From a virus (taxonomy: Duplodnaviria; Caudoviricetes), in the IMG/VR virus record IMGVR_UViG_3300027805_000006: 64,000 bases of DNA; one strand, written 5' to 3'. The translations under genes and the position numbers were made by a program. The notes beneath the pieces were generated by a model. That model was not told the DNA's origin. It saw only the letters and a list, made by a program, of their open reading frames with translations, and searched no databases. Of this stretch, positions 23,493-60,673 are shown in pieces (within the stretch, counting starts at the first letter, position 1; each line of letters opens with the position of its first letter).

Positions 23493-24188
23493 TTATTTCA
23501 ACAATTTTGAAATTAGCGAATTAGGAGGGAATTTTCCAGAAATATCTACACCTGCCCTTTTCCATGTTTCATTGTAAAGATGTACAAATCTTGTATTTGC
23601 CGGAATTTCACCATCAGCAATAAACTTCGCTGGACTTTCTTGCCAACCTATTGGATTTGCAAATTCAGGAGCAAATACTGTAAAGCCGTGATTCGGATTC
23701 ATTGTTACGAGACCTGTCAAAAGCCAAGGACCAATTTCTGACCAAGTAATTTTATCCTTTGGGAATTTTTCTGTATATGCTAATGCTAGACTTATCAAAT
23801 TTCCTTCAGATGGTGTAGGATTAAAAAGAACATTTCCGTTAATCTGAACCGCATTACCATTTTTTTCAGTTACTAAAAACGGTGTGGTGGGAAGTTTATC
23901 AGGAGATACTAAACAAACGACATCGGTGTCTGAATATAAACCGCCAATTTTATCCAATACAACATATCTAAAGAGATCTGAAAAGCCAGCATATGATCCT
24001 TGTTTATTAAGAAAGATCTTGTCTTCTGACAGCATTTCTCTTGCATCTCTAACCATACTAGAAGGTAAGTCCTGTATTGTTCCATATGTCCATACATTAC
24101 AATCATACCCTTTTTCAGCAAATGACAGAATACATTTGCTGAAAGCAGTTCCTACATTTCCATATGCCCAGAAAAAATGTGTTTTCAT
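23493..24188 (-). CDS. glycosyltransferase with DXD sugar-binding region (GT32-like)
   Basis: FSDLFRY.VL...GGLYSDTDV, IGPWLLT. Confidence 0.8.
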   Translation of the reverse strand: MKTHFFWAYGNVGTAFSKCILSFAEKGYDCNVWTYGTIQDLPSSMVRDAREMLSEDKIFLNKQGSYAGFSDLFRYVVLDKIGGLYSDTDVVCLVSPDKLPTTPFLVTEKNGNAVQINGNVLFNPTPSEGNLISLALAYTEKFPKDKITWSEIGPWLLTGLVTMNPNHGFTVFAPEFANPIGWQESPAKFIADGEIPANTRFVHLYNETWKRAGVDISGKFPPNSLISKLLK

Positions 24189-24189
24189 A

Positions 24190-26810: not shown

Positions 26811-26828
26811 CTTTTATATCTGTATAAG

Positions 26829-26854
26829 AATACTGGTGCTATAGCACCAGTATT
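26829..26854. terminator. hairpin (terminator-like)
   Basis: AATACTGGTGCT-AT-AGCACCAGTATT. Confidence 0.5.
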
Positions 26855-26876
26855 TAGTGTTTCTAATAACCTGTTT

Positions 26877-27167
26877 TTACCTAACCTTCAGGTGCCAAAA
26901 CGCCTCAACAATTCTTTTTTCCTTTTCCTGAAGCGGAATAGGTGCATTTGAATGTGCGTTGCTCCATGCTCTAATTTTTTCATTTAGCACAGTAACTGCC
27001 TGACTGTTCCATGTGACTGTACGGTGATAGTTCAGGTCGTGTAGAAGTTGCTCATATACTTCTACTTTTTGTTTCAGCGTTGGCTTCTTAGACTGATTGA
27101 TCACTGGCTGCCTTTTTACGTTCTTCGTACGTGGTGTTGATGATTTGCGAACTGCCTGCATCTTCAT
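26877..27167 (-). CDS. hypothetical protein
   Basis: ORF in operon; start uncertain. Confidence 0.5.
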   Translation of the reverse strand: MKMQAVRKSSTPRTKNVKRQPVINQSKKPTLKQKVEVYEQLLHDLNYHRTVTWNSQAVTVLNEKIRAWSNAHSNAPIPLQEKEKRIVEAFWHLKVR

Positions 27168-27345
27168 TTATCTCAAATCGAAGCACATCACCAGCCTGCC
27201 AATCTGATTCTTCGAGCCACTTGTCGCTAAAGGAAATAATTAAATCTCCGTTACTTGCTTCATGCATTTGGATGTCATTGCCATCAGGGTCATGCTGAGG
27301 AATATCATCTCCGCATTTGTCAAGTGATAAATGAAAAGTTTTCAT
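27088..27345 (-). CDS. AbrB/MazE-like small DNA-binding protein
   Basis: LIISFSDKWLEESDWQAGDVLRFEI resembles the swapped-hairpin pattern. Confidence 0.45.
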   Translation of the reverse strand: MKTFHLSLDKCGDDIPQHDPDGNDIQMHEASNGDLIISFSDKWLEESDWQAGDVLRFEINEDAGSSQIINTTYEERKKAASDQSV

Positions 27346-27432
27346 CTTATTTCCTTCTATAAGTATAGATGTATTTTATTTCTATAGTAAGCAGCGCCAA
27401 ATAAAAATTAAGGTTGAGTGTACATTTTCAAT

Positions 27433-27810
27433 CTACCAGCGATCAATGAATAGCCTCCAATGATCTGCGTGTTTTTTAAGAAATACTTTTTTGTTCTCAA
27501 TTAGTTTAGGTTCAACTTTAGAAGTTGCTTTCTTCTGGCTTTGGGTATATACTATCCAAAGATCGCGGCCGGTGTGGCCCAAATACTTAGATTCTAAAAG
27601 ATCACCAGCGTAGCGCCAGCTAAACTCACTGTCAATCTCTATGATCTCTTCAGGTGGTATGTCGGCTATCTCTTCAGAGGCTCGCAATAAATTTGTATTT
27701 GATTTAAACCAGACCTGTACAGTTTTTTGCTTATCAAGAAGCTTATTAAGCAGCGTACTTAATAATTCTGTTTCGTCAGAATGATTTATTTCATCGAGTC
27801 TCATTGTCAA
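27433..27810 (-). CDS. hypothetical protein (one copy of a repeated module)
   Basis: LLNKLLDKQKTVQV module start shared with the two upstream genes. Confidence 0.6.
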   Translation of the reverse strand: MTMRLDEINHSDETELLSTLLNKLLDKQKTVQVWFKSNTNLLRASEEIADIPPEEIIEIDSEFSWRYAGDLLESKYLGHTGRDLWIVYTQSQKKATSKVEPKLIENKKVFLKKHADHWRLFIDRW

Positions 27811-28864
27811 TCACCACAAAATAATCGTCATTTGGCTGCTTCTTAAGTTTCATCTTACTAAACATGTCTTCATAATAGACACGTATCTTTACTGCCTTTC
27901 CCTTTGGATAATTGTATTCAACAAAAAAGTCTATTGATGACGGGTTTACACTTAAGCCGGTTATTGGTTTTTCTGAATCATAGAATTCATCATCCAACAA
28001 CCAGAATTTTTTACCGGCTTTTCGCAGGCGCTCGATCATTGATTTCAGCGTATCGGCATAAATGGAATCAAAGTCCTTATCTTCCTGCATTTCTTCAAGG
28101 CTGTCTTGTTTTTTACCAGCAGCTATTTCTTCTTCATGCTGCTTAAATCTTTCCCAAACGTGGCTGTGCGCAACTCCCCATCCACCACCAGGAATGCGAC
28201 CGATAACAACACTTCCATCGGCGACATCTTCATTTCTAAGCGTTGCGATTGATGTTCCGCCTGATTTTTCAAGTGATATCCACCCTTCTTTTTTTTCTTG
28301 TCCTAAACCACCAACATATGTCAAATCAACATCTGTAAAAGGTTCTACTCTATAGTTATGAACAAGAGGTCCGCGCGAGATACTTCTATCTTTTCTTTCA
28401 CGAATATAATAGACGTCATTTGACTTTTTCAGAAGTTTCTGAAGCATTGAAACAAAAAAGTCAAACTGCTTTTCATCAAATACTTCATCTTCAGCGAGGG
28501 AGTTAGATAAATTCTCTTCTTCAGATACTTTATCTTGCATATTTTTTGCATTTTCGTTCTGCAAAAAGCGCCGAATTCCCCACATAGAGGCAAACACCCA
28601 ATGTCCAAATGGCGATGGAAGTTTCTTTAACGCCACCAGACCAGCATCGATGTCTTCTATGTTGTAAGTCTTTGAAGTAGGAACTGGAAATACGGGCTCT
28701 AGGTATAAAGTCACAACACCTACCTGAGGCTTTAATTTAATAGTGTGTATCTTTGATAGTTCGTAAGTATTTTCTGAAATAGTATAGACTTCTTTACCTG
28801 CTTTTAACAGACGCTGGATGGTTGCTGACGTAAATTCTGCATCTGCAAGTTCTTGCTTTTCCAT
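27791..28864 (-). CDS. hypothetical protein with three repeated modules
   Basis: QRLLKAGKEVY / QKLLKKSNDVY / ERLRKAGKKFW separated by acidic linkers. Confidence 0.65.
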   Translation of the reverse strand: MEKQELADAEFTSATIQRLLKAGKEVYTISENTYELSKIHTIKLKPQVGVVTLYLEPVFPVPTSKTYNIEDIDAGLVALKKLPSPFGHWVFASMWGIRRFLQNENAKNMQDKVSEEENLSNSLAEDEVFDEKQFDFFVSMLQKLLKKSNDVYYIRERKDRSISRGPLVHNYRVEPFTDVDLTYVGGLGQEKKEGWISLEKSGGTSIATLRNEDVADGSVVIGRIPGGGWGVAHSHVWERFKQHEEEIAAGKKQDSLEEMQEDKDFDSIYADTLKSMIERLRKAGKKFWLLDDEFYDSEKPITGLSVNPSSIDFFVEYNYPKGKAVKIRVYYEDMFSKMKLKKQPNDDYFVVIDNETR

Positions 28865-29547
28865 TATTTTTCCTGAAGTTCTAGACCTTTTTTGGTCTTC
28901 CTAAGAGTGTATCTGTCAGCGCTTCTTTCATTGAAGTACATATCATGATAGTGTTTCCACCCAACACCTTGACGTTTAGATAGCCTTAATAACCAAACCT
29001 TTATAACTCCGTCGGTGTCTTTCATACCTACCCTCGCATCTGACACAATTCCTTTTGTTTCCCGCCCGAGGTAATTCAAACTAAAATAAACGGCGTTTCC
29101 CTTCTTTAATTGATTATCGACAAGGGTCCATATCAGAGGAGGTTTTTGCTGCTCTGCTTGTTCTTCACGGAGTTTATCTTCTTCGGGTTCCTGTTTATTT
29201 TGTTTTGAAACCAAAGTGACGCGTGTTTCCCCATCTACCTTGATGGTTTTTAGTGTATAGAAATTCTCTGAGCCGTCTCCAGTTAAGACAGCTCTTTTTC
29301 GCGCGCCCGTATTTTCATCTTTATAGAAGACTTCCCAGTCATCATGCCTACTATTTCCAAATAGGTTCAAGGCTTGAACGGGATAAATTTCTTGTGTAAT
29401 AAGACCCTTTAGCTTCGTGAATGAATGAACACCCACGTCAATATAAACCTTCTCACCTTTCTTTATTCTCTGGTTAATAATAGAAACTATAAGAGGAGGC
29501 TTTGAGTTTTCTAAAAGAATATCAGTAATCTTCATCTGCACCACCAA
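28864..29547 (-). CDS. hypothetical protein with two repeated modules (head-internal type)
   Basis: MKITDILLE start, KPPLI...KKG..VY twice, CATAAATA at 29559-29566. Confidence 0.65.
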   Translation of the reverse strand: MVVQMKITDILLENSKPPLIVSIINQRIKKGEKVYIDVGVHSFTKLKGLITQEIYPVQALNLFGNSRHDDWEVFYKDENTGARKRAVLTGDGSENFYTLKTIKVDGETRVTLVSKQNKQEPEEDKLREEQAEQQKPPLIWTLVDNQLKKGNAVYFSLNYLGRETKGIVSDARVGMKDTDGVIKVWLLRLSKRQGVGWKHYHDMYFNERSADRYTLRKTKKGLELQEK

Positions 29548-29594
29548 AAAACATATGCTATTTATGCCTTAAGCCGTTGCAGAATGTTTCTTTG

Positions 29595-30410
29595 CTATTG
29601 AACTTTACATGAAGCAGTCTTAATAGTAGATATTGACTTAGAATTATTTGGCCATACCTGCGTAGAAAATGCTGGTTGCTTAGGTAGAGCAAATTGAATG
29701 CCCGTCCGGCGCTGGACCTCGTAAAAATCGGTCACAAACTGTGATGGGTCGCCTGCTGTTGCTCCGGCCGGATAAATGAATGATAGTACTTGATTATTTT
29801 TTTGGTCGATTACTACTTTAAAGAATGCATCGGGAACAACAACTCTACCACGCCCAATGGTATTAGATGACTTTCTATTGTAGATGGGGCCAACATGGAT
29901 AAGAAGTGGTGTATTTCGTTCCACCGCCCAAACTCTTACGAGTTCTTCAAGTTGCTTCCAGGGTCCGCGATTCAATGCAGGTAGTTGAGGTGCTGCATTA
30001 CTCAGTACATTACTTTCAATTTCTACCTGTGGTGACCAGCGCATATCTGCATTTCCAGCCATGTGCCCAATGTCGTAGCCACTCTTTGCATAATCGCTTA
30101 CTTCTGCTCTAATAAATGGAGGAAAACTTATTTCTGGATCAAAATCATTTGTACGCTTCGCACATCCAAAAACTCTTTTAGATGTTAATGTGTATGAAAC
30201 CCAAACCGGAATCTTTGCTTTATTGTCATGCTCAAGCGCATATCCTTCTCTGCAGATGCGAGAAACATCCATCTTTTTTACATCTGGAATTCCATAAGGT
30301 ACATGTTCTTTACACTCAGAAATATGTTTTGATTCCCTAGGTGTGCCAGCAAACACATTCGCCCAAAAGAACAAAAATGATAGAGTGCATATTAACAGAA
30401 ATTTTTTCAT
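29595..30410 (-). CDS. secreted DNA/RNA non-specific endonuclease (NucA/EndA family)
   Basis: signal peptide MKKFLLIC; GYDIGHMA, NAAPQ...NRGPW.QLE, VPDAFFKVV. Confidence 0.88.
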   Translation of the reverse strand: MKKFLLICTLSFLFFWANVFAGTPRESKHISECKEHVPYGIPDVKKMDVSRICREGYALEHDNKAKIPVWVSYTLTSKRVFGCAKRTNDFDPEISFPPFIRAEVSDYAKSGYDIGHMAGNADMRWSPQVEIESNVLSNAAPQLPALNRGPWKQLEELVRVWAVERNTPLLIHVGPIYNRKSSNTIGRGRVVVPDAFFKVVIDQKNNQVLSFIYPAGATAGDPSQFVTDFYEVQRRTGIQFALPKQPAFSTQVWPNNSKSISTIKTASCKVQ

Positions 30411-30583
30411 TTTACCTACTCCTATTCTTATCAATTGACTGGAGAGGCGTTGTTTTTGCTGCAGACTTAAGAAACGCCCGAATAGCACCCTGCCTAAGCA
30501 TTATGCGGTTTCAAGAGCCAATAGACAGAAAATGCATTTCTGCTACCGGAAAATCAAGGCACCAGTCAATTGAATAGTATTAT

Positions 30584-30850
30584 TTATTGTCTGCTTTCAG
30601 ACTTATCAATTGCTGCCATAAGATCAGCAGCAAAACCAGGATTGGTATTGCGAATACTATTAGCGTATTGCCTCAGTTGCTCTGTGGTTTCACACCCTTC
30701 TGGTCCATAAACTGACGGTGCCGTAATATTCTTCCAAACATTAGCAATTTTTTCTGAATAAAAAACAAAGGCTTCGGCCATCCATTCAGCACCCCTTGGT
30801 TTTTGCGCAGTTGCTTGGTAATCCATTTTAAATCTCCCTAATAAAAACAA
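30584..30850 (-). CDS. hypothetical protein
   Basis: ORF; start probably MDYQ. Confidence 0.55.
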   Translation of the reverse strand: MFLLGRFKMDYQATAQKPRGAEWMAEAFVFYSEKIANVWKNITAPSVYGPEGCETTEQLRQYANSIRNTNPGFAADLMAAIDKSESRQ

Positions 30851-30851
30851 A

Positions 30852-30873
30852 GCATCCTGCCTAGGCAGGATGC
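30852..30873 (-). terminator. intrinsic terminator
   Basis: GCATCCTGCC-TA-GGCAGGATGC with a T tract on the minus strand. Confidence 0.65.
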
Positions 30874-30893
30874 CGTTCGGTTAAACTAATTAA

Positions 30894-31151
30894 TTAGTCC
30901 TTCTTCTGTACGAAGCCATAGAGTTCGTTTGCCTTCTTGACAACTTCCTCGATGGAGTACATCTTAGGCATTAGTTTTCCAGCCTCTTCCAGCGTAGCCT
31001 TCTGGGTGCTGATAAGATGATCAGCCATCTTATTAGCCATATCCAGTTGGATGGCAGTTTGTGCCTGCAGATAGTCTTGCGCCATCTGAAGAAGAGTTAG
31101 CCTGATTTCGTAGGGTGATTTGCTAGAACTAGCATTTGTTTTGGTAGTCAT
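30894..31151 (-). CDS. hypothetical phage protein
   Basis: 85 aa, GGAGG RBS. Confidence 0.65.
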   Translation of the reverse strand: MTTKTNASSSKSPYEIRLTLLQMAQDYLQAQTAIQLDMANKMADHLISTQKATLEEAGKLMPKMYSIEEVVKKANELYGFVQKKD

Positions 31152-31255
31152 AATGACCTCCTGTGTGTAGTGTGTTTTACAGCATTTGAGGCCGCTGTAA
31201 GAAGCCTATACTCTATATATACCGGGAGCATTACGCTCCCAGTATAATCTTAAAA

Positions 31256-31402
31256 TCAAGCAGAACGTTGGCGCTGCGGAATGCGAACGGTAGTTACAGC
31301 AGTCGTGGTAGGACGACGCTTGGCAACTGCCATCTTTACAAAGCGACCAGTCTTTAGGTCACGGGCAACGGTTTGCTTAACATACTTGGTCTTTGAAGCC
31401 AT
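31256..31402 (-). CDS. small basic protein (RDLKTGRFV motif)
   Basis: 48-aa ORF behind AAGGAG; higher GC. Confidence 0.6.
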   Translation of the reverse strand: MASKTKYVKQTVARDLKTGRFVKMAVAKRRPTTTAVTTVRIPQRQRSA

Positions 31403-31504
31403 AAGTTTCTCCTTTGAGTTACAAAAGTTGCTGAACCTTGTTTGTTCAACACTGTTATAATAACACAAATTAAACCTGTAGTAAGATAAGTTTAGGTTAG
31501 AAAT

Positions 31505-31532
31505 AGAAATGGGCTCGTAAGAGCCCATTTCT
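31505..31532 (-). terminator. intrinsic terminator
   Basis: AGAAATGGGCTC-GTAA-GAGCCCATTTCT. Confidence 0.7.
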
Positions 31533-31547
31533 TATGCTAGGAAAGAA

Positions 31548-31772
31548 TTACTTCTTTGCTGGCTCAGCCTTGGCAGCAGGTGCTGCTGGAGTAGCAGGCT
31601 TGGCTGCTGGAGCAGATGCCTTAGGTGCGCCGGGCTTGGCAGCAGGTGCTGAAGCCTTAGGTGCAGGAGCAGCAGGCTTTGCTGGCTCAGCCTTGGCAGC
31701 AGGTGCTGCTGGGGCTTGCGCAAATGCACTTGCACTGAAAGCCACTAGGGCGGCGAGTACTACGTTCTTCAT
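31548..31772 (-). CDS. small secreted Ala/Pro/Lys-repeat protein
   Basis: signal peptide (..SASAFA) followed by PAAKAEPAKPAAP repeats. Confidence 0.75.
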   Translation of the reverse strand: MKNVVLAALVAFSASAFAQAPAAPAAKAEPAKPAAPAPKASAPAAKPGAPKASAPAAKPATPAAPAAKAEPAKK

Positions 31773-31848
31773 TTGGTTCTCCTTTAGAGAGTTAGTTGTG
31801 GATTAATGTTTATAACACAAGTGCCAACATTTTTAGGCATCTTTTAGG

Positions 31849-32166
31849 TTAAAACTTTCTTGTGGTTTTGCGTACAGCCCGCTGCTTCGGTGCAGCCTTG
31901 ACTGCGGTTTTTGGCTCAACGGGCTCTGGACCTGGTTGGACCAAAGGAAGTTGTTCTACTTCTACTGGCTTTTGCTCTCCAGCAACATCAACACTTCCAT
32001 CCATCTTATATAGACGACGGCTAGTCATTCGGCGAGACAGTTCTTCAGCACCAGCAACTGCTTGGCTGGACTTATTTGCTGCCTTCCATGAAAAATATAA
32101 ACTAATTGGTCCGCCAATTAGCCCGACCAGACTTGAAGCAACACTCATCATTTGGGTAGCATCCAT
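31849..32166 (-). CDS. membrane-anchored hypothetical protein
   Basis: MDATQ start behind AAGGAG; N-terminal TM helix. Confidence 0.55.
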   Translation of the reverse strand: MDATQMMSVASSLVGLIGGPISLYFSWKAANKSSQAVAGAEELSRRMTSRRLYKMDGSVDVAGEQKPVEVEQLPLVQPGPEPVEPKTAVKAAPKQRAVRKTTRKF

Positions 32167-32378
32167 TTTTATCTCCTTTTTGAGAAGTACGCTAGTATTT
32201 AGCAATAAACACTAGTTAGCAAGGTTTTTTGACCTGCTGTTCTACTGCTTCCTGTAGATGCTCTTCTGGAGCAAGCTTTTTATCGAGGTCAGTGAGGTCT
32301 CTTCCTAAGATCACTTCCCAACGATTTTCATATTCGCGCTCGAGCGCTTCTTTTATCTGTTGTATTATGTTTCTCACT

Positions 32379-32576
32379 TTACTTCCAGTCTGTATCCCTC
32401 CGCTGATGTCTATTTAGGAGTACTCGCAGGGTAACTGCTATTGGTACATCATTTTCCTTGAGAAAGGAGAGTGCTTTGTTGAATGAATTTTCTAAATGCA
32501 GAAACGCTATGCCCTTATTCACAGTGGCTTCTAGTTCCTTGTTATCGCGTGTAAAAGGTGTCACTTGAGTGTGCAT
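32379..32576 (-). CDS. hypothetical protein
   Basis: 65-aa ORF. Confidence 0.5.
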   Translation of the reverse strand: MHTQVTPFTRDNKELEATVNKGIAFLHLENSFNKALSFLKENDVPIAVTLRVLLNRHQRRDTDWK

Positions 32577-32633
32577 TAAATTCTCAGGTTGGCTAAATAT
32601 TATATTTAATCAATCTAAATGGTTAATTGAGTT

Positions 32634-32909
32634 TTATACTACAGTCTCTAGTGGGAGATGACTTTCATCAGCTTCGCCTGGTAATGTGTCCTTTGGAATC
32701 TTCATCAACCAATCCTGTGGCATATGACCTGTTTTACTTCTTTTACCATTCTCAGTCATAAGTTCCGTAGGTGCCTCTACTAACCACACGACTCCGTACT
32801 TTGAATGTGTGCCGGCAATTTCAATACACGTAATAATCTTCCCAACTGACGCCCCAGTAACGCTCTTTATAATAAGAGCCAAATCACCAGGCTGTAGTCT
32901 TTTATCCAT
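32634..32909 (-). CDS. hypothetical protein (SH3-like beta fold possible)
   Basis: LQPGDLALII..VG..V pattern. Confidence 0.55.
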   Translation of the reverse strand: MDKRLQPGDLALIIKSVTGASVGKIITCIEIAGTHSKYGVVWLVEAPTELMTENGKRSKTGHMPQDWLMKIPKDTLPGEADESHLPLETVV

Positions 32910-33309
32910 ACCTTGCGCCAGACCTTAAAAATTCTTCTACCACCTCAGGAGTGGACGTGACGCCTAGATAATTTGCAAATGCTAGCATGAGCCGCTTTTC
33001 TTCACTGGGTGACATAATTAAATTATGAATATCTAGGTAGTTTGCATATTGCGCAAGAGCATACGCTGATGTATCAAAGCCGAAGGTAGTGTAAAGAACT
33101 CCACGATATGAGCGACCTTCTTCAATCTCACCCTTGTAGATGCGCCTAGAAACAGCACAAAAGAGACTTATTTGGTCCTCCATAGAAAGAGAATTCCACA
33201 GTTTTTCCTGCGCTTCCTCTTCTTGCTTCATTACGCGGTTAAACACTTCTGAAATTTCGTCCAATGATTTAAGGGCTTCTTCTCTTTTTTTAGTATCTTG
33301 CTCTTCCAT
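32902..33309 (-). CDS. hypothetical protein
   Basis: 135-aa ORF directly after a tRNA. Confidence 0.6.
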   Translation of the reverse strand: MEEQDTKKREEALKSLDEISEVFNRVMKQEEEAQEKLWNSLSMEDQISLFCAVSRRIYKGEIEEGRSYRGVLYTTFGFDTSAYALAQYANYLDIHNLIMSPSEEKRLMLAFANYLGVTSTPEVVEEFLRSGARYG

Positions 33310-33329
33310 TATTTACACCTATTTTAGTT

Positions 33330-33419
33330 TGGTCCCGCCGTGTGGAATCGAACCACATCCTGGACCTTATCTAGATTAAGGGCTTATAAGACCCCCTGCT
33401 CTCCTTGAGCTACGGCGGG
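33330..33419 (-). tRNA. tRNA-Ile: tRNA-Ile(UAU), atypical: 90 nt with a long variable region
   Basis: acceptor CCCGCCG/CGGCGGG-A-CCA, T arm TGTGG-TTCGATT-CCACA, loop CT-TAT-AA, 21-nt variable region. Confidence 0.75.
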
Positions 33420-33498
33420 AAATAATCTTTTAATATTTTCAAAGGTTATTTATTCATAACAATTATAACACAGCCTCAACCTTCATCGCCAGTTTATT

Positions 33499-33996
33499 TC
33501 AAACTGCACCAATAGCAACTGCCTCTTCGTACAATTGTTGATAGGTATGCTGCTCAAAATCTAGTGTAAGTAAAAATCTAGGCTTTTCATCAAAGTTTAT
33601 AACTGTGTGGTAGCAAGTTGTGTCAAAAAGCACTGGCTTTCCAACTTCATAATTTACAACATCAAAAGATATTATCCCGTTGAGGGGTTTCTCAAGTTTT
33701 TTACCATGAAGCGTATAACTATTACTATATTCAAGCAACACGTTTATGCCACATTTTCTATGTTTATCGCAGTGCCATTCTAGTGTAGTTTTAGGCTCTA
33801 ACATTAGAATTGTGCCATTAGGAAAGAATTTTTCTATAATACGACAAACTTCACCAGAAAAGCGGACGTGTTGATGTGTAATAGGAATTACATAAAGCCC
33901 TTTATCTGCAATCCATTTTTCCTTCGTCAGATTTTTGCATAGGTGGAGAAGCGTTGCTTTGTTTATTAATTCACCTTTCAGCGTTACCCAACTCAC
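33499..33996 (-). CDS. putative Fe(II)/2OG-oxygenase-like protein
   Basis: LEWHCD..CGINV...FDTTCYHTV (HxD..H). Confidence 0.5.
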   Translation of the reverse strand: MSWVTLKGELINKATLLHLCKNLTKEKWIADKGLYVIPITHQHVRFSGEVCRIIEKFFPNGTILMLEPKTTLEWHCDKHRKCGINVLLEYSNSYTLHGKKLEKPLNGIISFDVVNYEVGKPVLFDTTCYHTVINFDEKPRFLLTLDFEQHTYQQLYEEAVAIGAV

Positions 33997-35639
33997 GATT
34001 TCTTCTTAGCTAGTTTCTTAAGTTGAGGCATCTCAAGTAAAACAGGTTTCTTACTTCGTGTAGATTCAGCTTTGATTCCACCAGCATCTAACCACATCTG
34101 CTTGATGAGCCTTCGCATATCTGGCGGAGCATTTTTTCCTGAATCGGTCCAAGCGTCCCATAGCTTCTTCAATTCACGCAGTGCTTCATCAGCTGACATA
34201 CCTGCTACTGGTTTCTTTTCATCTTCTGACTTTTTCTCGCCCTCGCCAGCTTTTTCTGTTGGCTTTTTCTCGCCCTCGCCAGATAATGCTTCCTCCGGTG
34301 GAGCAACTCCAACTTTTCCAAATGCACCACTGATTGATTCTGGCTTTGCACCAGCACCTACCAGCACCTTAGTCACAGCTTCTACATCAGTAGGTGAACC
34401 AGCTTTCTTCCACGCTGCATTCAGTTTATCAGCGGTAATTTTAGTAGTTAGATTTGCAGCTGCAGTCTTTACTTTTCCTGCTACCTTCTTAATGAAATCT
34501 AATGGTCCTTCAAGAAGAATCTGCTTTTCTACTTCTTCAAACAATGAATTAATTTGAGCATGAGATAGACTCTCTGTTTTCGGCTTTGCTGCACCACCTC
34601 CTGCGGCAGCAACAGCGCCTTGACTTGCTGCTGATAAGCCTTTACCAAGTGCATTTATCCATTGTAGCAAACTATCATTTTGTTTTGCAGCGGCCCAAGC
34701 ACCTTTCATTGCGCCTTCCATCGCCTGCATATACTCTTTAGAGTTTATTTCCTTGCTAACAGCTACTAATGCGTCAAATGCTTTTCCAGCACCTTCCCCG
34801 CCCTTTTTAATAGTTGCAATGGCATTACGCACTGTCTCTGCATCTTCTGATGTCATCAGCGCATCGACAGACTTAATCGGCCGCACGTACTCCAAACCAG
34901 GAGCATTGATTTGACGTGATGCATCGAAACTTACACGCTCAAGACCTGCGTCCTTAGGACCAAATGGAATATATTTTTCTCTTATTCCAGCAACATATTG
35001 ACCTGCGAGATCAAATAGTTTTCCGGCAATAAAACCGTACGCAGCGGTTTTGATGCCCTTGCCGATAGCAGTAGAGAGTTTCTCACCCTTCAGAAGTTCT
35101 GCTGCTCCACGAAGAATCTGACCTGCCACTGCACCACCAACTGGACCACCAGCGATTGAAGCGATAGCAGTTAGAACACCGATAATGGCCGCGGTTTTAC
35201 CTGGGTTTTCTTTAGCCCAAGTACCCATTGCTGTAAGGTTCTTCTCTAGCGCAGGAAACTTTTCGCCTATCTTCTTCTTTAGGTCTTCAAACTTCTGGTC
35301 AAATGCCTGAACAGGTCTGGTGTCTTGCAGCCATTTACCGACGTTGTTAATTACGTCGTTTGCTTTTACGACTGTGTCTTTTGCTTTTCCAAGTACGGTG
35401 CGGTTTGTACCTGCTGCAGTCTCAGCATCCTCGATGTGTTTGAACATCTGGGTAAGTTGGTCAACCGTGACCGCTGCTTCAATTAGCGGTAGAAGTTCAC
35501 CATGAATACCCCTAACGACGCGAGACTGCTCTTCAGATAGGTCAAGACAAACAGACTCTAAGAGAGCCTGAGATTCTAACAGGTGTTGCTCAAGCAGTAT
35601 TTTTTGACGGTTAAGTGCGTGAAGTTCTAGAATATTCAT
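33993..35639 (-). CDS. probable virion/prohead-associated protein
   Basis: multiple (I/L)LLE motifs typical of prohead-protease substrates; CATAAATA at 35666-35673. Confidence 0.55.
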   Translation of the reverse strand: MNILELHALNRQKILLEQHLLESQALLESVCLDLSEEQSRVVRGIHGELLPLIEAAVTVDQLTQMFKHIEDAETAAGTNRTVLGKAKDTVVKANDVINNVGKWLQDTRPVQAFDQKFEDLKKKIGEKFPALEKNLTAMGTWAKENPGKTAAIIGVLTAIASIAGGPVGGAVAGQILRGAAELLKGEKLSTAIGKGIKTAAYGFIAGKLFDLAGQYVAGIREKYIPFGPKDAGLERVSFDASRQINAPGLEYVRPIKSVDALMTSEDAETVRNAIATIKKGGEGAGKAFDALVAVSKEINSKEYMQAMEGAMKGAWAAAKQNDSLLQWINALGKGLSAASQGAVAAAGGGAAKPKTESLSHAQINSLFEEVEKQILLEGPLDFIKKVAGKVKTAAANLTTKITADKLNAAWKKAGSPTDVEAVTKVLVGAGAKPESISGAFGKVGVAPPEEALSGEGEKKPTEKAGEGEKKSEDEKKPVAGMSADEALRELKKLWDAWTDSGKNAPPDMRRLIKQMWLDAGGIKAESTRSKKPVLLEMPQLKKLAKKKS

Positions 35640-35784
35640 AGTTTTGCGCTTTAAAAATACAGAACTATTTATGTGGAAACTATATTTAGTGCTTCAAGTA
35701 TGCTCAATAACCTTAATGGCAGTGTGTTCGTCTATCGCCTTTTGATAGATGGTGTATATTTTATTCTTTACAGACTGAGTAAAT

Positions 35785-36096
35785 TTATCCAACAGTATAC
35801 TCAACAAACTTAATACCTGCTTCTTTTATTGCCATCTCACAGATAGGGCACGGCTTTGATAGTTTTGGATTTCCGCTTGCGTCATATCTTTCAATTTTTA
35901 TTTTGTGTATTTCTTTGCCCTTTGCACGAATAATACAGGATATTTCTGCGTGCAAAGATTGTTTTTTATCCAACCCAACGTGTTTGGCGTATTTAGCCTG
36001 CAACGGATGTGTGCGAAAATAATTATTTTGCGCAGAAGAAATCTTTTTGCCTCTTTTATCAAGAGCAGTGGCAGTAATAAGAAATTTTCTTCCCAT
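35785..36096 (-). CDS. cytidine/deoxycytidylate deaminase-family protein
   Basis: HAE and KPCPIC zinc motifs. Confidence 0.8.
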   Translation of the reverse strand: MGRKFLITATALDKRGKKISSAQNNYFRTHPLQAKYAKHVGLDKKQSLHAEISCIIRAKGKEIHKIKIERYDASGNPKLSKPCPICEMAIKEAGIKFVEYTVG

Positions 36097-36201
36097 GATA
36101 TTTGCTTGAAATATACCACCTAGATAATTGCAGTGATGTCGATACCCCGTGTCATACTGCTATTATAACACATATTTCAACCTGAGTTTTACTGTAACAC
36201 A

Positions 36202-36276
36202 TGGAGCAGGTGGTGAGGTTCGAACTCACGACATTCTCGTTGGCAACGAGACATTCTACCACTGAATTACACCTGC
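36202..36276 (-). tRNA. tRNA-Gly: tRNA-Gly(GCC)
   Basis: canonical cloverleaf, loop TT-GCC-AA, CCA encoded. Confidence 0.95.
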
Positions 36277-36301
36277 ATAGAGTTATTTATTGGAGCCAAA
36301 A

Positions 36302-36347
36302 AGGAAACTCCCCGAGATTCTATTTCTAAAATCTCGGGGAGTTTCCT
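36302..36347. terminator. 18-bp perfect inverted repeat (terminator or processing hairpin)
   Basis: AGGAAACTCCCCGAGATT-N10-AATCTCGGGGAGTTTCCT. Confidence 0.65.
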
Positions 36348-36361
36348 GCGCCTAGTTTTTA

Positions 36362-36574
36362 TTATACTTCTGGATGTGTGATTTTTACAAATTTCAAAAA
36401 GTGGTCATGAAGCGTTTTCCTAAATGCTTGACGACTATGGATAAAATTGTCATATCCATGTGCATTAAACATTGAGGCGGCGGCCGCCATATTATCTGCC
36501 AAACTCATTAATTTTTCTTCTTCATTTTCTCCGTGCGGTGATAACGACATATCCGGGTATGCTAACTGTTTCAT
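36362..36574 (-). CDS. hypothetical protein
   Basis: 70-aa ORF with GGGGAG RBS. Confidence 0.55.
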   Translation of the reverse strand: MKQLAYPDMSLSPHGENEEEKLMSLADNMAAAASMFNAHGYDNFIHSRQAFRKTLHDHFLKFVKITHPEV

Positions 36575-36608
36575 AATATTTCTCCCCCATTTTGATTATG
36601 TAATTAAT

Positions 36609-37268
36609 TTATTGCCTCGATACTATGTGCCATGCATTTCCTCTGTAGAGCAATTGCAAACATTCAAATGGTTCTTGTAGAGTAACTTGAGTTAAGTTAT
36701 CTATTTTTGCACCATCTGAAGTTACTATTTTAATCTTTCGGGAGCCTATAGGGGCACTCATTTCTGATTTAATTATTAAAATAAAGCAATCAAGTAAGAC
36801 AGTGGGCAAAGTGATAGTAACTGGTCCTGTGCTGTTTACCCCTACATAGAGGTCATCTGCCTGAACCTCATAATCTTCGCTCACCACAACGGCTTTACAG
36901 CCATCATGAGAACAACTTCCTGGGTCTCCCTTAGGGCCGGTTGGGCCGGTTGGTCCAGTAGACCCCATTTCTCCAGGTAACCCCATAGGTCCCGTGGGTC
37001 CAGTCGGGCCATCTTTTCCAGGTAACCCCATCGGTCCTGTAGGTCCAGGTGGGCCTGTAGGTCCAGGTGGACAGTCACAATCATTATCATTGTCTTGATT
37101 GTTTATTATTACTGTATCATTGCCAGAGCCAGTATCAACTGAAGGCAAACCCCCAGATAATACCTGTATAGCCTGCTGAAGAAGAGTATCTGATATTGGT
37201 TCTTTTCGGCTGCTTAACTTTAATAGCGCATCATTTAGTTGAATCAATCTTGCTTCTAGCGTGTTCAT
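36609..37268 (-). CDS. collagen-like repeat protein
   Basis: about 16 Gly-X-Y triplets ([18 protein letters not shown]) flanked by Cys; C-terminal beta domain. Confidence 0.85.
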
Positions 37269-37346
37269 CTTGTCTCCTTTCTTAGGAAAAGCAAGCCCTT
37301 ACGGGCCTGCTTTTAGCCTAGCCTCACTGTTATGTGAACGAACGGA

Positions 37347-37973
37347 TTAGCGAACGTTATTGCTTGTGCTAGATTGACCAACGCCGGCCATTGTGCCGAA
37401 ATTGACCATGCCTTGACGAGTTTCTTGCAGTTGGCTTTGGAAGGCTTGTAGTTGGCTTGTTACGGCTGACCACTGACCTTGTTCTGCCATATGACGCCAG
37501 TGACGACGTCCAAAACGCTCATCGACTAGTTCAGCATTACGCTCAACTAGCGCGCGATTTAGATCATGATACTTGAGATCATTGATTAGATCGCGGGTCT
37601 TTTGACCATCAGCAAAGATTTCTTTGCTTAGGGTTGCTTGACCAAGAGCAACTGCTGTAGCAACCTTTTGGCTTTCTAGCGCCGCGGCTGCGGCTCCTGC
37701 TGCAACCGCCGCCTGAATCTCGTTTGTTGTACGAGACATATTGGCATCTGTCAAGACTTTTAGACTTGCTAGATCACGCGCAGCCTCATTGGCATTTTGT
37801 TGTGATGCAATATAAAATGCTACTGCTTGACCATCTAATCTATCTGCTTGACGATCAACTTCTGAAATGACGTCATGACGTGTGTCTTTGACATCACCAC
37901 GCGTTGCGTAGAAATGAGCATCTGCATTTCGCTCGAATGAATTTAGATCGACTTGTGTTACTGGATCTGCCAT
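37347..37973 (-). CDS. helical/coiled-coil hypothetical protein
   Basis: MADPVTQ start behind AAAGGGG; higher GC. Confidence 0.65.
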   Translation of the reverse strand: MADPVTQVDLNSFERNADAHFYATRGDVKDTRHDVISEVDRQADRLDGQAVAFYIASQQNANEAARDLASLKVLTDANMSRTTNEIQAAVAAGAAAAALESQKVATAVALGQATLSKEIFADGQKTRDLINDLKYHDLNRALVERNAELVDERFGRRHWRHMAEQGQWSAVTSQLQAFQSQLQETRQGMVNFGTMAGVGQSSTSNNVR

Positions 37974-38190
37974 TTTAATTTCCCCTTTTTCTTTTTCTTT
38001 TTGGAAATAAATGGCGGTGAGCATATTGAAACGTATATTCACCGCCTGCTCTTACGCTCATCTAGTATTTCTAGATAAGACTAACGGTGTTCGTCGCCGC
38101 TACCGATACGGGTTGGTTCCCATATTCATTGTGGTTCTCTTTGGAACCTTTTGCTTATTACTATTTATAGAGAATTGTGCAATTTCATCT

Positions 38191-38391
38191 TTATTCAGAT
38201 TCAACTTTTGTAAGGTCCTCAACTGGATAACAATTGCCTTCTCGCGTATAAACCCTTAAATCGTGGTTTTTTACACTTGTATAATCTACAGTTTCAAGAG
38301 TTCCTTTCCGAACATTATGAACCTTACTGCCTGGAAAAAAGATAATTACCTTCTGAAGTTCGCTGAGTGCCTTCTCTCGCATACTATCCAT
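38191..38391 (-). CDS. hypothetical protein
   Basis: 66-aa ORF behind AAGGAG. Confidence 0.55.
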   Translation of the reverse strand: MDSMREKALSELQKVIIFFPGSKVHNVRKGTLETVDYTSVKNHDLRVYTREGNCYPVEDLTKVESE

Positions 38392-38579
38392 CTTATACTC
38401 CTTGAAAGGGTTATAGAGACATTATATACTAATCATCAACCCTCGTATAATTTAAAACATTTCCAGTACCATACTGTGCCTCGCCCAACATCTTTGCTTC
38501 TAGGTCATTGCTTGCCCAGATAATGGTATGTGCTGTTTGATAATTTCCAATTTTTACCCACAGTTCATACTTGTACATT

Positions 38580-39434
38580 TTAAAACTCCATTTTCAATTT
38601 TAACTCTGCAAAACGATACTCAAACCCGCCGGCTAATCCATAGTCTCTTCCGACGTTTACTGACATAGATGTTGTCTTTGCTAGTTTAGTGTCTGCCTGT
38701 AGTTTCCAAGCAACTGCATCTTCAATGCTTCCACCTGAATCAATTTTAGTATTTTCAACTGTTGCTGATACCCGTGTATTACCAAAGGTTTGACGGATCA
38801 AAATACCAAGTCCTCGACGGCTGTATTCATCAGGAGAAAAATAGTTTGGTGAAAATGATATAGAATTGGTATATCCATGATACTTTGCAAAAACTATAAC
38901 GCCGTTAGCAATTGATGTCCACGCCCTTACCCTATATCCTTGCTGTGTGTTGTTATCAGCATAGCGAATACTTCTAGCCCCAATAACAATTCCTGTGACG
39001 TCGTTTGACAATTCAGTATTCGTCATTATGCCATAGTATGGAGTCTTTACAGGTGAAGAATTTGAAATAATTGTATCTCCAAAAACTGTTATCTCTGTAG
39101 TTATATCCTTAAGAGGAGAGAAGCGCGCGGTGGTATCTCCAACAAAATATGTCCTACCGTCAATTTCGCCAACTCCAAGATTTCCTGTAAATGACACATT
39201 GCTTATACCATAATCAAGTACAAGAAATGCTTCCTTTGAATCAACTTTCCCAAATGCGGTTCGATGTGTTGAGTATGCTATTCCAACACCCAGCGGCGAA
39301 CCTAAAAACAATACTGAATTTTTTCGCGTCAAAATGCCATCATCATCTGCTTGAAATGATTTATATTCAACTGTTTCTGCAGATGCAACAGAAAAAACAA
39401 ATATAAGTGCCAATAATGTAAAGATCTTTTTCAT
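38580..39434 (-). CDS. outer-membrane beta-barrel protein (PgaA/BcsC porin-like)
   Basis: signal peptide, alternating amphipathic strands, NYFSPDEY motif, terminal Phe; overlaps the GT2 stop. Confidence 0.6.
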   Translation of the reverse strand: MKKIFTLLALIFVFSVASAETVEYKSFQADDDGILTRKNSVLFLGSPLGVGIAYSTHRTAFGKVDSKEAFLVLDYGISNVSFTGNLGVGEIDGRTYFVGDTTARFSPLKDITTEITVFGDTIISNSSPVKTPYYGIMTNTELSNDVTGIVIGARSIRYADNNTQQGYRVRAWTSIANGVIVFAKYHGYTNSISFSPNYFSPDEYSRRGLGILIRQTFGNTRVSATVENTKIDSGGSIEDAVAWKLQADTKLAKTTSMSVNVGRDYGLAGGFEYRFAELKLKMEF

Positions 39435-40900
39435 TTAGTTCCCCATGTTTTTTTGCTACCAACAACAAGTTCCTTTAGATAACCAAGCACACACGCTGGT
39501 TGAAGTATCATTCCATATAGCAGTGAGTAAAACATAAACCCAATTAGGTTCTTTCTTACTCTTAATCCCTGCTTTCTAAACATCTCAGCCTGTGCGTCAT
39601 ACATTATATAATTGACAATCATCGCAAGTGGCAGCACGAACAGCGTAAGTGGGCCTGCAATCCAGTAAATTCCAAACAACGCAAGAATAATTCCTGGAAT
39701 AAACACAAACGTGTATGTCAAGTCAAGTAGGAAGAATAGAGCATTCCACCAGATAAACAGAGTGGTCATCCGCACCTTGAATAGAAGTTGCCAATTTTCC
39801 TTGAATGCCTCCACAAGACCACGGCTCCACCTTTGACGCTGTCTAATAAATTGCTTCCAGGTATCTGGTGCATTTGTGAATAGACAGGCGTCTTCAGCAA
39901 AGCCAATGCGGTAGCCCTTATTGAGCATTGACCACGTCAAAACAATATCCTCACCGACACACGCCGGCCATTGACATATCTCCTTTAGAACACGAGTTTC
40001 ATATAGGCTAAAGGCGCCCTGCGCAACAAGTGTTCCCTGGTATAGACTTTGAATTCTCTTTACCGCAGCAATACCATGGAAGTAGTCCCATTCCTGTGTC
40101 TTCGTTACCAGATTTTTTCTTGAGTTTCGCACAAGAACAGCACCAGCAACTGCAGCAGTGTTTTGGGGGTCGCTGAGGTAGCGCTCTACAATGTGCTTCA
40201 GCGCGTCCTTGAAGAGGTAACTATCAGCATCGATAGTAATCGTGAGCGCCGATTTTACCTTCGTCATACCAAGATTTAGAGCGCTACTCTTCCCGCGGTT
40301 CATACTTTCATTAATGAAGTACAGCCACGGGTATTGGTGCATTACTCCCATCACGCGCTGTGCAGTTCGGTCCTTGCTGCCGTCATTTATCAAGATAGTG
40401 GTCATCTGACCTGGATAATCTTGCCTATCGATACTTTCGAGCGTACTGAGGATATTGTCCTCTTCGTTATACGCTGCAACCAGTATTGTAATTGCTGGGT
40501 ATTCATCTACCTTAGGTCGACGCGTAGGTCTCCTATCTAGAAGAAGGCTGCTAACCATGAACGCGTTCATGAAGCCAGGAAGAATTGCAATTCCGAATAT
40601 AGAGATAAGAGAGATAGGATAGGTGACAATCTGCGCAAACTCATCGATCCACCGCTCAGCAACAATGTATGAGAATATCATCCATGCTGTAGCCGCAGAA
40701 AGTGAGATGATGAACTTTTCTCGTGTTGTGATGTAGAAGTTTGTAAAGACAACGCAGAGAATAAAGAAGGTAAAGATTGCTACAGTCACGGCAGAAGTAA
40801 CTACTTCTGCCTTAAAGATATAAACAAGCAGTACCGTGATAAATGCCAGCACTGCTCCAATCTTTATCTTATACTTCAAATTTTCATCAGAAAACAACAT
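39431..40900 (-). CDS. processive GT2 polysaccharide synthase (PgaC/IcaA-like)
   Basis: N- and C-terminal TM helices; D (NDGS), DxD (IDADS), GED and QRQRW motifs. Confidence 0.88.
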   Translation of the reverse strand: MLFSDENLKYKIKIGAVLAFITVLLVYIFKAEVVTSAVTVAIFTFFILCVVFTNFYITTREKFIISLSAATAWMIFSYIVAERWIDEFAQIVTYPISLISIFGIAILPGFMNAFMVSSLLLDRRPTRRPKVDEYPAITILVAAYNEEDNILSTLESIDRQDYPGQMTTILINDGSKDRTAQRVMGVMHQYPWLYFINESMNRGKSSALNLGMTKVKSALTITIDADSYLFKDALKHIVERYLSDPQNTAAVAGAVLVRNSRKNLVTKTQEWDYFHGIAAVKRIQSLYQGTLVAQGAFSLYETRVLKEICQWPACVGEDIVLTWSMLNKGYRIGFAEDACLFTNAPDTWKQFIRQRQRWSRGLVEAFKENWQLLFKVRMTTLFIWWNALFFLLDLTYTFVFIPGIILALFGIYWIAGPLTLFVLPLAMIVNYIMYDAQAEMFRKQGLRVRKNLIGFMFYSLLYGMILQPACVLGYLKELVVGSKKTWGTK

Positions 40901-44969: not shown

Positions 44970-45044
44970 TGGTTGCGGACCCTGGAGTCGCACCAGGTAT
45001 CTCTTGGTTATGAGCCAAGCGGATTACTGTCTTCCTCGCCCGCA
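44970..45044 (-). tRNA. tRNA-Met: tRNA-Met(CAU), atypical D and T loops
   Basis: acceptor TGCGGGC/GTCCGCA-A-CCA, CTTGG-CTCATAA-CCAAG, T loop TGCGACT. Confidence 0.75.
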
Positions 45045-46634: not shown

Positions 46635-46713
46635 TGGTAGGCGCACTGGGACTCGAACCCCTGGCCTTCTGCGTGACAGGCAGACGATCTAACCAACTGA
46701 TCTAACGGTGCCC
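46635..46713 (-). tRNA. tRNA-Asp: tRNA-Asp(GUC) with irregular acceptor/T stems
   Basis: canonical D arm and TCTGC-CTGTCAC-GCAGA, CCA present; acceptor pairing is out of register. Confidence 0.65.
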
Positions 46714-50325: not shown

Positions 50326-50341
50326 ATAATTGAAATTTGTG

Positions 50342-50419
50342 TGCCCTAGGCGAGACTCGAACTCGCACCCGAAGACTGGCTTCTAAGACCAGCGTGTCTA
50401 CCAATTCCACCACCAGGGC
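50342..50419 (-). tRNA. tRNA-Leu: tRNA-Leu(UAG); CCA not encoded
   Basis: GCCCTGG/CTAGGGC-A, CTGGT-CTTAGAA-GCCAG. Confidence 0.9.
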
Positions 50420-50420
50420 T

Positions 50421-50672
50421 TGTAAATGCCGGTTACGTAGTTCCGGCACCCTCCATTCGCCAAGGGCCGTCAGCGGCCAGTTACGCATCTGGCTTGCTGG
50501 GATTAAGCAACGCCTGCCTTGCGGCTAGTCTTCCCCCAGGTCCCACTGGGTATATCGCCGGTTACGCGATCCGGCTTAGGGTACATCACCATATGGACTG
50601 ATCAGGTCCGCCCCGGTCACCTAACGCTTATATACGGGATGGTGGATTGACATACCTGGCCAATCAGCAGGT
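50421..50672 (-). ncRNA. unassigned structured ncRNA (~250 nt)
   Basis: GC-rich island with many stems, a GNRA loop and three A..CGUAA hairpins; no credible ORF. Confidence 0.7.
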
Positions 50673-50690
50673 TATTAAATTTATCTATAC

Positions 50691-50755
50691 CATATTGAAG
50701 CACACTGGGGGATTCGAACCACCTATCTGTCGGCATCAATCATTTAGTGCCTCAT
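50691..50755 (-). ncRNA. tRNA-like mini element (T arm plus closing stem)
   Basis: GGTGG-TTCGAAT-CCCCC and TGAGGCAC/GTGCTTCA; 3' end GTGTGCTTCAATATG. Confidence 0.45.
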
Positions 50756-51162
50756 GATTCTTCTCTATTGCTAGTCATGCTATGATTACCCTTGTTTACT
50801 GTTACCTTGTCTTTATCGACAACAACAGTCATGGGTTCATTCGCCTCGTCTAGACGCTGAATAAGTTCATTTATAACCTTAAATTCAGGTTTTTCTTCTT
50901 TTTCTTTTGATCCAGTAATGCTTGCTAACATTGTAATCAATGCCATTACCGCGGTAGAAACTAATCCTATAACAGCAGGCAAACTATCGCTTGGAAGAAA
51001 CGCACTAGAAACAACACCTACAATGACTAGTAATACTATCCATGGTATAGCAGTTTTGCCTATAATTTTGCTACTTACTTCCTTAGCAGTGTTTTGCTGC
51101 TCCATCTTCCTAAGTTCTATTATTGCTTGTGTTTTTAATAATTGCAATTCTTTGTCAGCCAT
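50752..51162 (-). CDS. two-TM membrane protein
   Basis: two hydrophobic helices, charged C-terminus, TAAATA upstream. Confidence 0.65.
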   Translation of the reverse strand: MADKELQLLKTQAIIELRKMEQQNTAKEVSSKIIGKTAIPWIVLLVIVGVVSSAFLPSDSLPAVIGLVSTAVMALITMLASITGSKEKEEKPEFKVINELIQRLDEANEPMTVVVDKDKVTVNKGNHSMTSNREES

Positions 51163-51431: not shown

Positions 51432-51461
51432 ATTATACAACAACCTCTAACTAATGTAAAC
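51432..51461 (-). promoter_or_regulatory. early-type promoter GTTTAC-N18-TATAAT heading the tRNA array
   Basis: read on the minus strand ~60 nt upstream of tRNA-Glu. Confidence 0.6.
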
Positions 51462-60168: not shown

Positions 60169-60253
60169 GAAAAATCCTCCAAGTAATGATAATATTTATC
60201 ATAAATTTTATCATAGAGAAAGCAATGTTCTTCTATGCTACCTAGAAATAAAA

Positions 60254-60273
60254 GGGGCTACTTGCGTAGCCCC
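60254..60273 (-). terminator. intrinsic terminator ending the tmRNA gene
   Basis: GGGGCTAC-GCAA-GTAGCCCC-TTTTATTT on the minus strand. Confidence 0.8.
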
Positions 60274-60640
60274 AGTGGTTTGTTGGGTAATAAGGCCTTT
60301 CCTGCCCCAGGTGGTTTACGCTACTAAGCGAAGTTCCCCACCGAAAAATGCATCGTTTGCATTTATGGATTTTGCTTCATTTACGTCGATCGCCTGACGT
60401 GCTGTCCATGCGCCTACTCTTTACCCCGTCGAAACCTTGTCACCCCCATCAGAGAATATACTATCTTGGCTCCTGCTGTTACGCTATCAACACACAAGTT
60501 CTGCCCTCATCATCGTTTAAGCTTCAGGTCAGACCATAATATATTCTCTGGTGGAGGTGGGCGGAATCGAACCGCCGTCCGGAACACTTTTCGGTTTACT
60601 TCTTTCCTTTCGGTCTTTACAGCAATATCTCTATTATATT
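60274..60640 (-). ncRNA. ssrA: circularly permuted (two-piece) tmRNA
   Basis: T arm and CACCTCC-A-CCA (ends 60549) come before GGGGGTG...TTCGAC (starts 60447); G3:U70; tag ANDAFFGGELRLVA* at 60360-60316; upstream boundary approximate. Confidence 0.88.
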
Positions 60641-60673
60641 TTATTTGATAACCAGTTTTAAAGATAATCCTGA

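Follow-up and report, generated by a model that had tools for sequence, protein, structure and literature searches.

The window, by which we mean the whole analysed stretch of 64,000 nucleotides, belongs to an IMG/VR viral contig of 85.8 kb with a completeness estimate of 24%. ARAGORN and Rfam place 16 tRNA genes in an array on the minus strand of the window, together with a permuted tmRNA. The element analysed here, from now on referred to as the leader, is located in this array between a 136-codon ORF (51162-50752, minus strand) and tRNA-Leu. Its G+C content is 0.54-0.63, compared with mostly 30-50% in the moderately AT-rich surroundings. The original prediction had described a GC-rich island directly 5' of tRNA-Leu, and the element indeed ends 8 nt before this gene. 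A candidate promoter is followed by tRNA-Glu, a small ORF, the leader and then tRNA-Leu, tRNA-Ile and tRNA-Cys, while no terminator-like sites were found between 49900 and 51500 (Table 1). Based on the promoter and the lack of a terminator-like site down to 49900, the stretch is most likely transcribed together with tRNAs and small ORFs as part of one polycistronic RNA, and the proposal of a non-coding structured minus-strand RNA within the tRNA transcript is supported.

Table 1. Features of the leader and its transcription unit (window coordinates).
Feature	Position	Strand	Description
Candidate promoter	51432-51460	-	TTTACA-17-TATAAT, 11/12 positions; sigma-70-like, strong; consensus match only
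5' hairpin e	50646-50664	-	AUUGGC (50664-50659)/GUCAAU (50651-50646)
Three-way junction	50587-50644	-	Helices a, c and d
Helix a	50644-50639 with 50592-50587	-	CACCAU/AUGGUG; two compensatory pairs, window vs L369/L368
Helix c	50638-50635 with 50615-50612	-	CCCG/CGGG; junction helix
Helix d	50609-50606 with 50598-50595	-	GGAC/GUCC; loop CUGAUCA; one compensatory pair, window vs L369/L368
Module 1	50557-50626	-	Pseudoknot CG 50626-50625; H1 UUAGG (50624-50620)/CCUAA (50580-50576); H2 50575-50557, GCCGG-AUCGCGUAA-CCGGC
Spacer hairpin f	50535-50550	-	CCCAG-UGGGAC-CUGGG; 4 pairs kept in L369, no covariation
GCC-GCAA-GGC hairpin	50516-50525	-	Deleted in L369
Module 2	50473-50514	-	Pseudoknot CG 50512-50511; H1 50510-50494 (UUGCU/AGCAA); H2 50493-50476, GCCAG-AUGCGUAA-CUGGC
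Module 3	50425-50471	-	Pseudoknot A-C-G 50470-50468 with loop U-G-C; H1 50467-50448; H2 50447-50428, GCCGG-AACUACGUAA-CCGGC
tRNA-Leu(UAG)	50341-50419	-	ARAGORN and Rfam; starts 8 nt past module 3; L369 arranged alike

Several further RNA elements were noted in the window. The permuted two-piece tmRNA (60225-60641, minus strand) is of the betaproteobacterial type and encodes the tag ANDAFFGGELRLVA. Rfam adds two tRNAs that are missing in ARAGORN, located at 46642-46711 and 44974-45043 (both minus strand; 38 and 36 bits). The 136-codon ORF is overlapped at its stop codon by a mini-helix of tRNA size (50691-50755, minus strand), which has the T-loop UUCGAAU and the closing stem GGCAC/GUGCU and is called by neither ARAGORN nor Rfam.

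Three tandem modules in the tRNA-Leu leader

The untranslated leader of tRNA-Leu consists, as we hold with high confidence, of a 5' hairpin, a three-way junction and three tandem copies of a widespread phage module that is absent from Rfam. Each module contains two adjacent hairpins, H1 and H2, preceded by a short 5' pseudoknot strand. Three repeated hairpins had been predicted on the minus strand and their presence was confirmed: all three H2 hairpins fit GCC(G/A)G-A(N)n-X-GUAA-C(C/U)GGC, and the pattern GCCGGA-N1-6-CGTAACCGGC is found twice in the window against an expectation of 0.00 from 100 shuffles. In all three modules the CG located 5' of H1 is complementary to the C-G of the H2 loop. 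The same hairpins are recovered by R1, a covariance model generated from 18 instances which all originate from other phages. Modules 2 and 3 give full-length matches (50514-50473, 19.6 bits, E 0.025; 50471-50425, 29.5 bits, E 2e-4), and H2 of module 1 scores 17 bits. The predicted H1 of module 1 is 49 nt long and abuts H2, and the module is flagged by script as pseudoknot-consistent. The H1 arms cross helix a of the three-way junction, with which they may form a pseudoknot or alternative folds. The folding energy of the element is ordinary on both strands (z = -0.33 for the minus and +0.41 for the plus strand); support for the structure is comparative and has no thermodynamic part.

Homologues of the leader were found on two metagenome contigs, referred to as L369 and L368, and additional scans of viral contigs yielded no further relatives of the 250-nt leader. 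L369, of freshwater origin, represents another phage whose tRNA array comprises 16 tRNAs and also contains a group I intron; it carries a complete three-module leader ahead of its tRNA-Leu, with 78% identity and compensatory changes. L368 carries the module 1 domain alone, followed by an intrinsic terminator. The H1 arms of module 1 are invariant across the three sequences. In H1 of module 3 four pairs are altered between the window and L369, every one of which still pairs, while pair 4 of module 2 H2 is A-U in the window and G-C in L369. The latter accounts for the predicted combination of kept loops and differing stems: GCCAG/CUGGC is a compensatory variant that reads GCCGG/CCGGC in L369 and recurs in other phages. 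A covariation check on homologues, as had been suggested, returned compensatory pairs against L369 and L368 in addition to the family-wide covariation of H1 and of the pseudoknot described below.

The remaining predicted helices fared unevenly. Compensatory pairs in the comparison with the two relatives back the CACCAU/AUGGUG stem and, within the junction it closes, GGAC/GUCC; CCCG/CGGG can form in the window, L369 and L368. Hairpin e is intact in all three, with one G-U to A-U change, and an alternative ACCUG/CAGGU pairing for this 5' hairpin was rejected since a C-A mismatch breaks it in L368. The proposed CCCAG/CUGGG hairpin is conserved in four pairs and shows no covariation, and UUGCU/AGCAA is present as H1 of module 2 and invariant in the relatives compared. 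By contrast, the GCC-GCAA-GGC hairpin is not conserved, and the suggested long-range UACCCU/AGGGUG pairing fails at three of six positions in L369, with AGGG pairing locally. The idea of a single ornate RNA of about 250 nt resembling GOLLD or ROOL gives way to three tandem modules of about 40-70 nt, the first of which stands alone in L368. A likeness of module 1 (UAUGG and CCUAAG) to the 11-nt tetraloop receptor was also dropped, as it is not kept in L369.

Both relatives contain additional structured RNAs. The group I intron of L369 (1974-2165, minus strand; 67.8 bits) is located within the tRNA array. In L368 (1190-1320) and on the minus strand of L369, the module 1 domain is preceded by a further conserved structure, about 85 nt long and with ACACACUAG/CUAGUGUGU as closing stem, which is not present in the window.

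Architecture and covariation of the module family

The general architecture of the module (about 40-70 nt) is 5'-N-C-N'-[H1]-[H2: GCCGG-A(N)1-6-X-G-U-A-A-CCGGC]-A. H1 can be of any sequence and is 10-74 nt long, mostly G-C closed, typically preceded by C-G and always located directly 5' of H2. The H2 loop has 7-10 nt, mostly 8-9, with a 5' part made up of A and 1-5 nt without a fixed U. H2 is followed by A in 75% of cases, and the next 10 nt are G-poor (7-15% G). Across hosts with a GC content of 40-66%, the H2 stem and the G-U-A-A of its loop hardly vary, a conservation that is overstated in the module set since the search patterns fix most of H2. In about 12 independent modules, pair 4 of H2 is A-U instead of G-C.

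Covariation argues for the formation of this fold at the RNA level. Among 111 R1 hits, 115 H1 cells are changed on both sides compared with 27 in shuffles; 99% of cells are paired, and H1 includes G-U pairs. N' is Watson-Crick complementary to X for all four bases (chi2 = 153, p = 2e-28): G accompanies X=C in 116 of 166 cases, U accompanies X=A in 15 of 27, C accompanies X=G in 18 of 31 and A accompanies X=U in 20 of 34. The constant C before N' faces the loop G, and pairing of C-N' with X-G of the H2 loop in a 2-bp pseudoknot is thereby established. A third pair between position -3 and the loop U was considered and rejected: the U is invariant, and position -3, most often A (57 of 144 modules, 40%), is independent of X (p 0.55). 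When the loop U was replaced in a control pattern, the CG prefix was present in 7 of 112 matches (69 with an adjacent hairpin), i.e. the architecture was lost and the result was background-like. Together, these comparative data show a real, widespread, pseudoknotted RNA module, three tandem copies of which are found here.

Distribution, genomic context and expression

Pattern searches of IMG/VR returned the relaxed H2 pattern, its stem variant GCCAG...CUGGC and variants with another base before GUAA in at least about 120 contigs each. Among the GCCAG...CUGGC matches listed, about 12 of 70 unique ones are true modules and the others are chance matches in coding sequences. Overall, 144 non-redundant, pseudoknot-consistent modules were recovered among the matches listed. 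Judged by these sequence matches, the module recurs in hundreds of unrelated phage sequences including P1, and it occurs singly in most other phages. The exact module 1 hairpin is found in 10 further viral contigs with shared upstream sequence. R1 identifies two copies in phage P1, one ending 4 nt ahead of tRNA-Asn in the ban operon, the other located about 190 nt after tRNA-Thr within the antisense hypothetical genes plp and upl. These two genes are annotated antisense to the ban-operon leader (1401-1970 of locus L130, taken from the P1 record AF234173), with the module at 1618-1658 of this locus, and may be spurious ORFs on a structured RNA. In a model search, no credible copy was found in E. 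coli K-12, T4, T5, lambda, P22 or 933W. Among 101 bacterial genomes of one family, 8 sporadically carry the module as a single copy each, as would be expected for prophage cargo.

Some loci differ in module arrangement. A family of sRNA-like sequences of about 200 nt from GC-rich (Comamonadaceae) prophages (L002-L010, L374, L375, L377 and L379) has the module at its end, with the AUCGCGUAA loop of window module 1, a tiny H1 (GGUGCAAUACC) and often a terminator next; it has no Rfam match. Two modules per non-coding stretch are found in L011 (2948-3128, minus strand), L049 (3174-3264), L076 and L104, and the L011 pair is located between two tRNA genes about 845 nt apart. A resemblance of some GC-rich homologues to RNase P RNA was taken as coincidence. 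Together with the tmRNA type, the Comamonadaceae prophage homologues of module 1 hint at a freshwater betaproteobacterial host for the window phage.

With respect to genomic position, 18 of the 144 modules lie within 500 nt of a tRNA, whereas 5.2% of bases in those loci do so, corresponding to a 2.4-fold enrichment; all 18 are on the strand of the tRNA. About 10 modules end 3-9 nt 5' of a tRNA, including those at P1 tRNA-Asn, the window tRNA-Leu and the corresponding gene of L369. A further position, 10-39 nt ahead of a start codon with a Shine-Dalgarno site, is occupied by 34 of the 144 modules. An intrinsic terminator is located within 60 nt downstream of 15 of the 144 modules compared with 1 of 144 control positions. 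The downstream genes are mixed (capsid-protease, terminase, tail tube, spike, QueC, methyltransferases and many small unknowns), and these gene families are too heterogeneous to give a functional clue of the riboswitch type.

Hints at expression come from metatranscriptomes. Three contigs of relatives covering 50557-50674 were identified in a freshwater metatranscriptome run at depths of up to 265, and an ORF of the window phage itself is present in the same run at a depth of 8.8. The contig of depth 265 is 212 nt long, is of the L369 type as judged by its loose ends and stops about 12 nt past H2 of module 1. The contig is compatible with an abundant and stable RNA that ends at module 1, bearing in mind that RNA libraries can contain DNA and that contig ends need not be RNA ends; the terminator following module 1 in L368 likewise suggests an RNA ending there. 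The P1 leader is present in RNA-seq assemblies of five studies.

Possible functions and relation to known systems

Modules are tightly spaced to RNase P sites, ribosome-binding sites and terminators and have a G-poor tail, which leads us to hypothesize a cis-acting function on polycistronic phage RNA: the module would be a compact boundary or protective element locked by its pseudoknot. It would be placed as near as possible to the next unit, whether this is a ribosome-binding site, a terminator or a tRNA with its RNase P site, and could there shield the adjoining RNA from nucleases and misfolding and define the stable products of processing. Once RNase P cuts at tRNA-Leu, the leader would be left over as a stable by-product RNA. 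This cis-acting mechanism is tentative, possible rather than probable. Modules that precede a terminator speak against it, there being no downstream unit to protect. Further, the near-invariance of H2 and G-U-A-A across hosts is not explained by generic protection and suggests a specific partner or catalysis; compact RNA motifs so conserved and widespread are usually ribozymes, riboswitches or specific factor-binding sites. Identity and mechanism taken together, our best explanation as a whole falls somewhat short of an even chance.

A specific partner is provided for if the module is released and works in trans, as a mimic or decoy of the tRNA-Thr anticodon arm on an ACN codon, directed at a conserved factor of the host. 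Possible targets include the 30S decoding site, ThrRS, enzymes of t6A37 formation and an anticodon nuclease. Three copies would raise the valency, and the originally predicted multivalent protein-binding or decoy RNA may be of this kind. With its 5-bp stem and a 3'-stacked NGU-A-A on a cis 'ACN' triplet, H2 resembles an anticodon arm, and the loop end N-G-U-A-A matches positions 34-38 of threonine tRNAs. X is free to vary while G-U-A-A is fixed, and the cis partner (A)-C-N' corresponds to a threonine codon, A being the commonest base at -3. Occurrence in tRNA operons, the enrichment near tRNAs and an invariance across hosts that favours a universal partner are also in line with mimicry. However, the loops mostly exceed the 7 nt of an anticodon loop and have no U33, position -3 shows no covariation, with A in a minority of modules, and the 'anticodon' is already paired in cis and thus hidden from enzymes that would read it. 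The loop of the E. coli thrS operator, UUUCGUGU, differs as well, and the majority of modules precede ordinary ORFs. The trans-acting role is therefore rather unlikely, and the threonine anticodon-arm likeness should be regarded as a lead rather than a finding.

Catalysis, DNA-level and regulatory roles are less likely. If the module were a new small self-cleaving ribozyme, cutting polycistronic phage transcripts at the borders of genes and tRNAs, this would be in keeping with the location between units. Some 25 positions in a stretch of about 40 nt are near-invariant, and with the 2-bp pseudoknot this is a conservation pattern of small ribozymes; the high-depth metatranscriptome contig also ends near H2. 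Improbable as it stands, this reading faces the lack of a match to any ribozyme family, permissive thresholds included, a topology unlike HDV-like, twister, pistol and hammerhead ribozymes, and the fact that RNase P already cuts a few nucleotides away at tRNAs. Slightly less probable still is a regulatory leader, either a riboswitch-like sensor or an RNA that, like put, modifies RNA polymerase for antitermination. Modules do occur in 5' leaders and ahead of long operons, and the compact conserved pseudoknot recalls small aptamers, but the downstream genes are mutually unrelated, an expression platform is missing, copies adjoin tRNAs or terminators, and R1 finds no match in the part of HK022 where put sites are expected (see below). 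Finally, a REP- or MITE-like mobile hairpin or a recombinase site without RNA function would agree with the many unrelated, at times tandem sites and with the sporadic single copies in bacteria (8 of 101 genomes of one family). It is very improbable given the shared strand of all tRNA-linked modules and their tRNAs, the precise spacing to tRNA 5' ends and start codons, and the marks of an RNA fold, namely Watson-Crick covariation between loop and flank and G-U pairs in H1.

The module bears on how phages process and stabilise polycistronic transcripts that contain tRNAs. That the module is instead a threonine-tRNA mimic docked on an ACN codon and engaging the universal decoding or modification machinery, or a new class of small ribozyme, is quite unlikely; either would amount to a new functional RNA class in hundreds of phages, P1 included. 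The absence from RNA databases, the four-combination pseudoknot covariation and the precise spacing to tRNAs and ribosome-binding sites are testable features, and the P1 copy directly 5' of tRNA-Asn makes it possible to study the module in E. coli at once.

Regarding databases, a cmscan of window 50380-50800 against Rfam 15 returned the neighbouring tRNA alone, even at E <= 10, in line with its being left unassigned originally. No overlapping Rfam match was found in 30 module-bearing loci or in L368 and L369, and blastn of the whole element against 50,697 GenBank phage records retrieved tRNA-Leu only. A literature search with sequence strings produced chance matches to tuf genes and a CRISPR spacer, while searches by topic retrieved no published description; the motif may be included in a catalogue of 10,006 candidate viral RNAs (PMC10690425). 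The Rfam families of a preprint on tRNA mimics do not match the module.

Individual known systems share some features of the leader or its modules. GOLLD (RF01998) and ROOL (RF03087) are also phage or prophage non-coding RNAs often found beside tRNA genes, but have a large multi-domain fold (about 580-800 nt), whereas the leader of about 250 nt is made of separable modules and is matched by neither in cmscan. HDV-like or theta ribozymes of phage tRNA arrays form a nested double pseudoknot 3' of the tRNA; they were rejected since cmscan gives no match, the modules lie 5' of tRNAs and the loop pairs with the upstream strand. The put antiterminator RNA of HK022 was likewise rejected as a homologue: putL and putR, not annotated in the record, presumably lie within 24000-40751, where no R1 match exceeds 8.5 bits. 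Guanidine-II (mini-ykkC) riboswitches similarly consist of tandem small hairpins with a conserved CG-containing loop, yet the module has another loop motif, H1 and a 5' pseudoknot, gives no Rfam match and is not associated with transporter genes. The E. coli thrS operator and PKI of the dicistrovirus IGR IRES resemble H2 in presenting an anticodon-like triplet in the loop of a 5-bp hairpin. In PKI this triplet is also paired in cis to a codon-like strand, and the thrS hairpin is also located directly 5' of a ribosome-binding site. The module differs from both in its loop of 7-10 nt without U33 and in a codon-like strand that lies 5' rather than 3' of the hairpin.

The T4 stable RNAs C and D (species 1 and 2) and the RNase III hairpins of T7 early RNA are processed within phage transcripts. 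Like the module, they are non-tRNA structured RNAs of phage polycistronic or tRNA transcripts; T4 gives no model match, however, and the module helices are far too short for RNase III. With xrRNAs the module has no sequence or family relation, and its pseudoknot partner is on the 3' side of the loop rather than beside the 5' arm. Nevertheless, as in xrRNAs and H-type pseudoknots, a short flank-to-loop pairing is predicted to lock the hairpin, and by analogy the module could plausibly act as a mechanical block.
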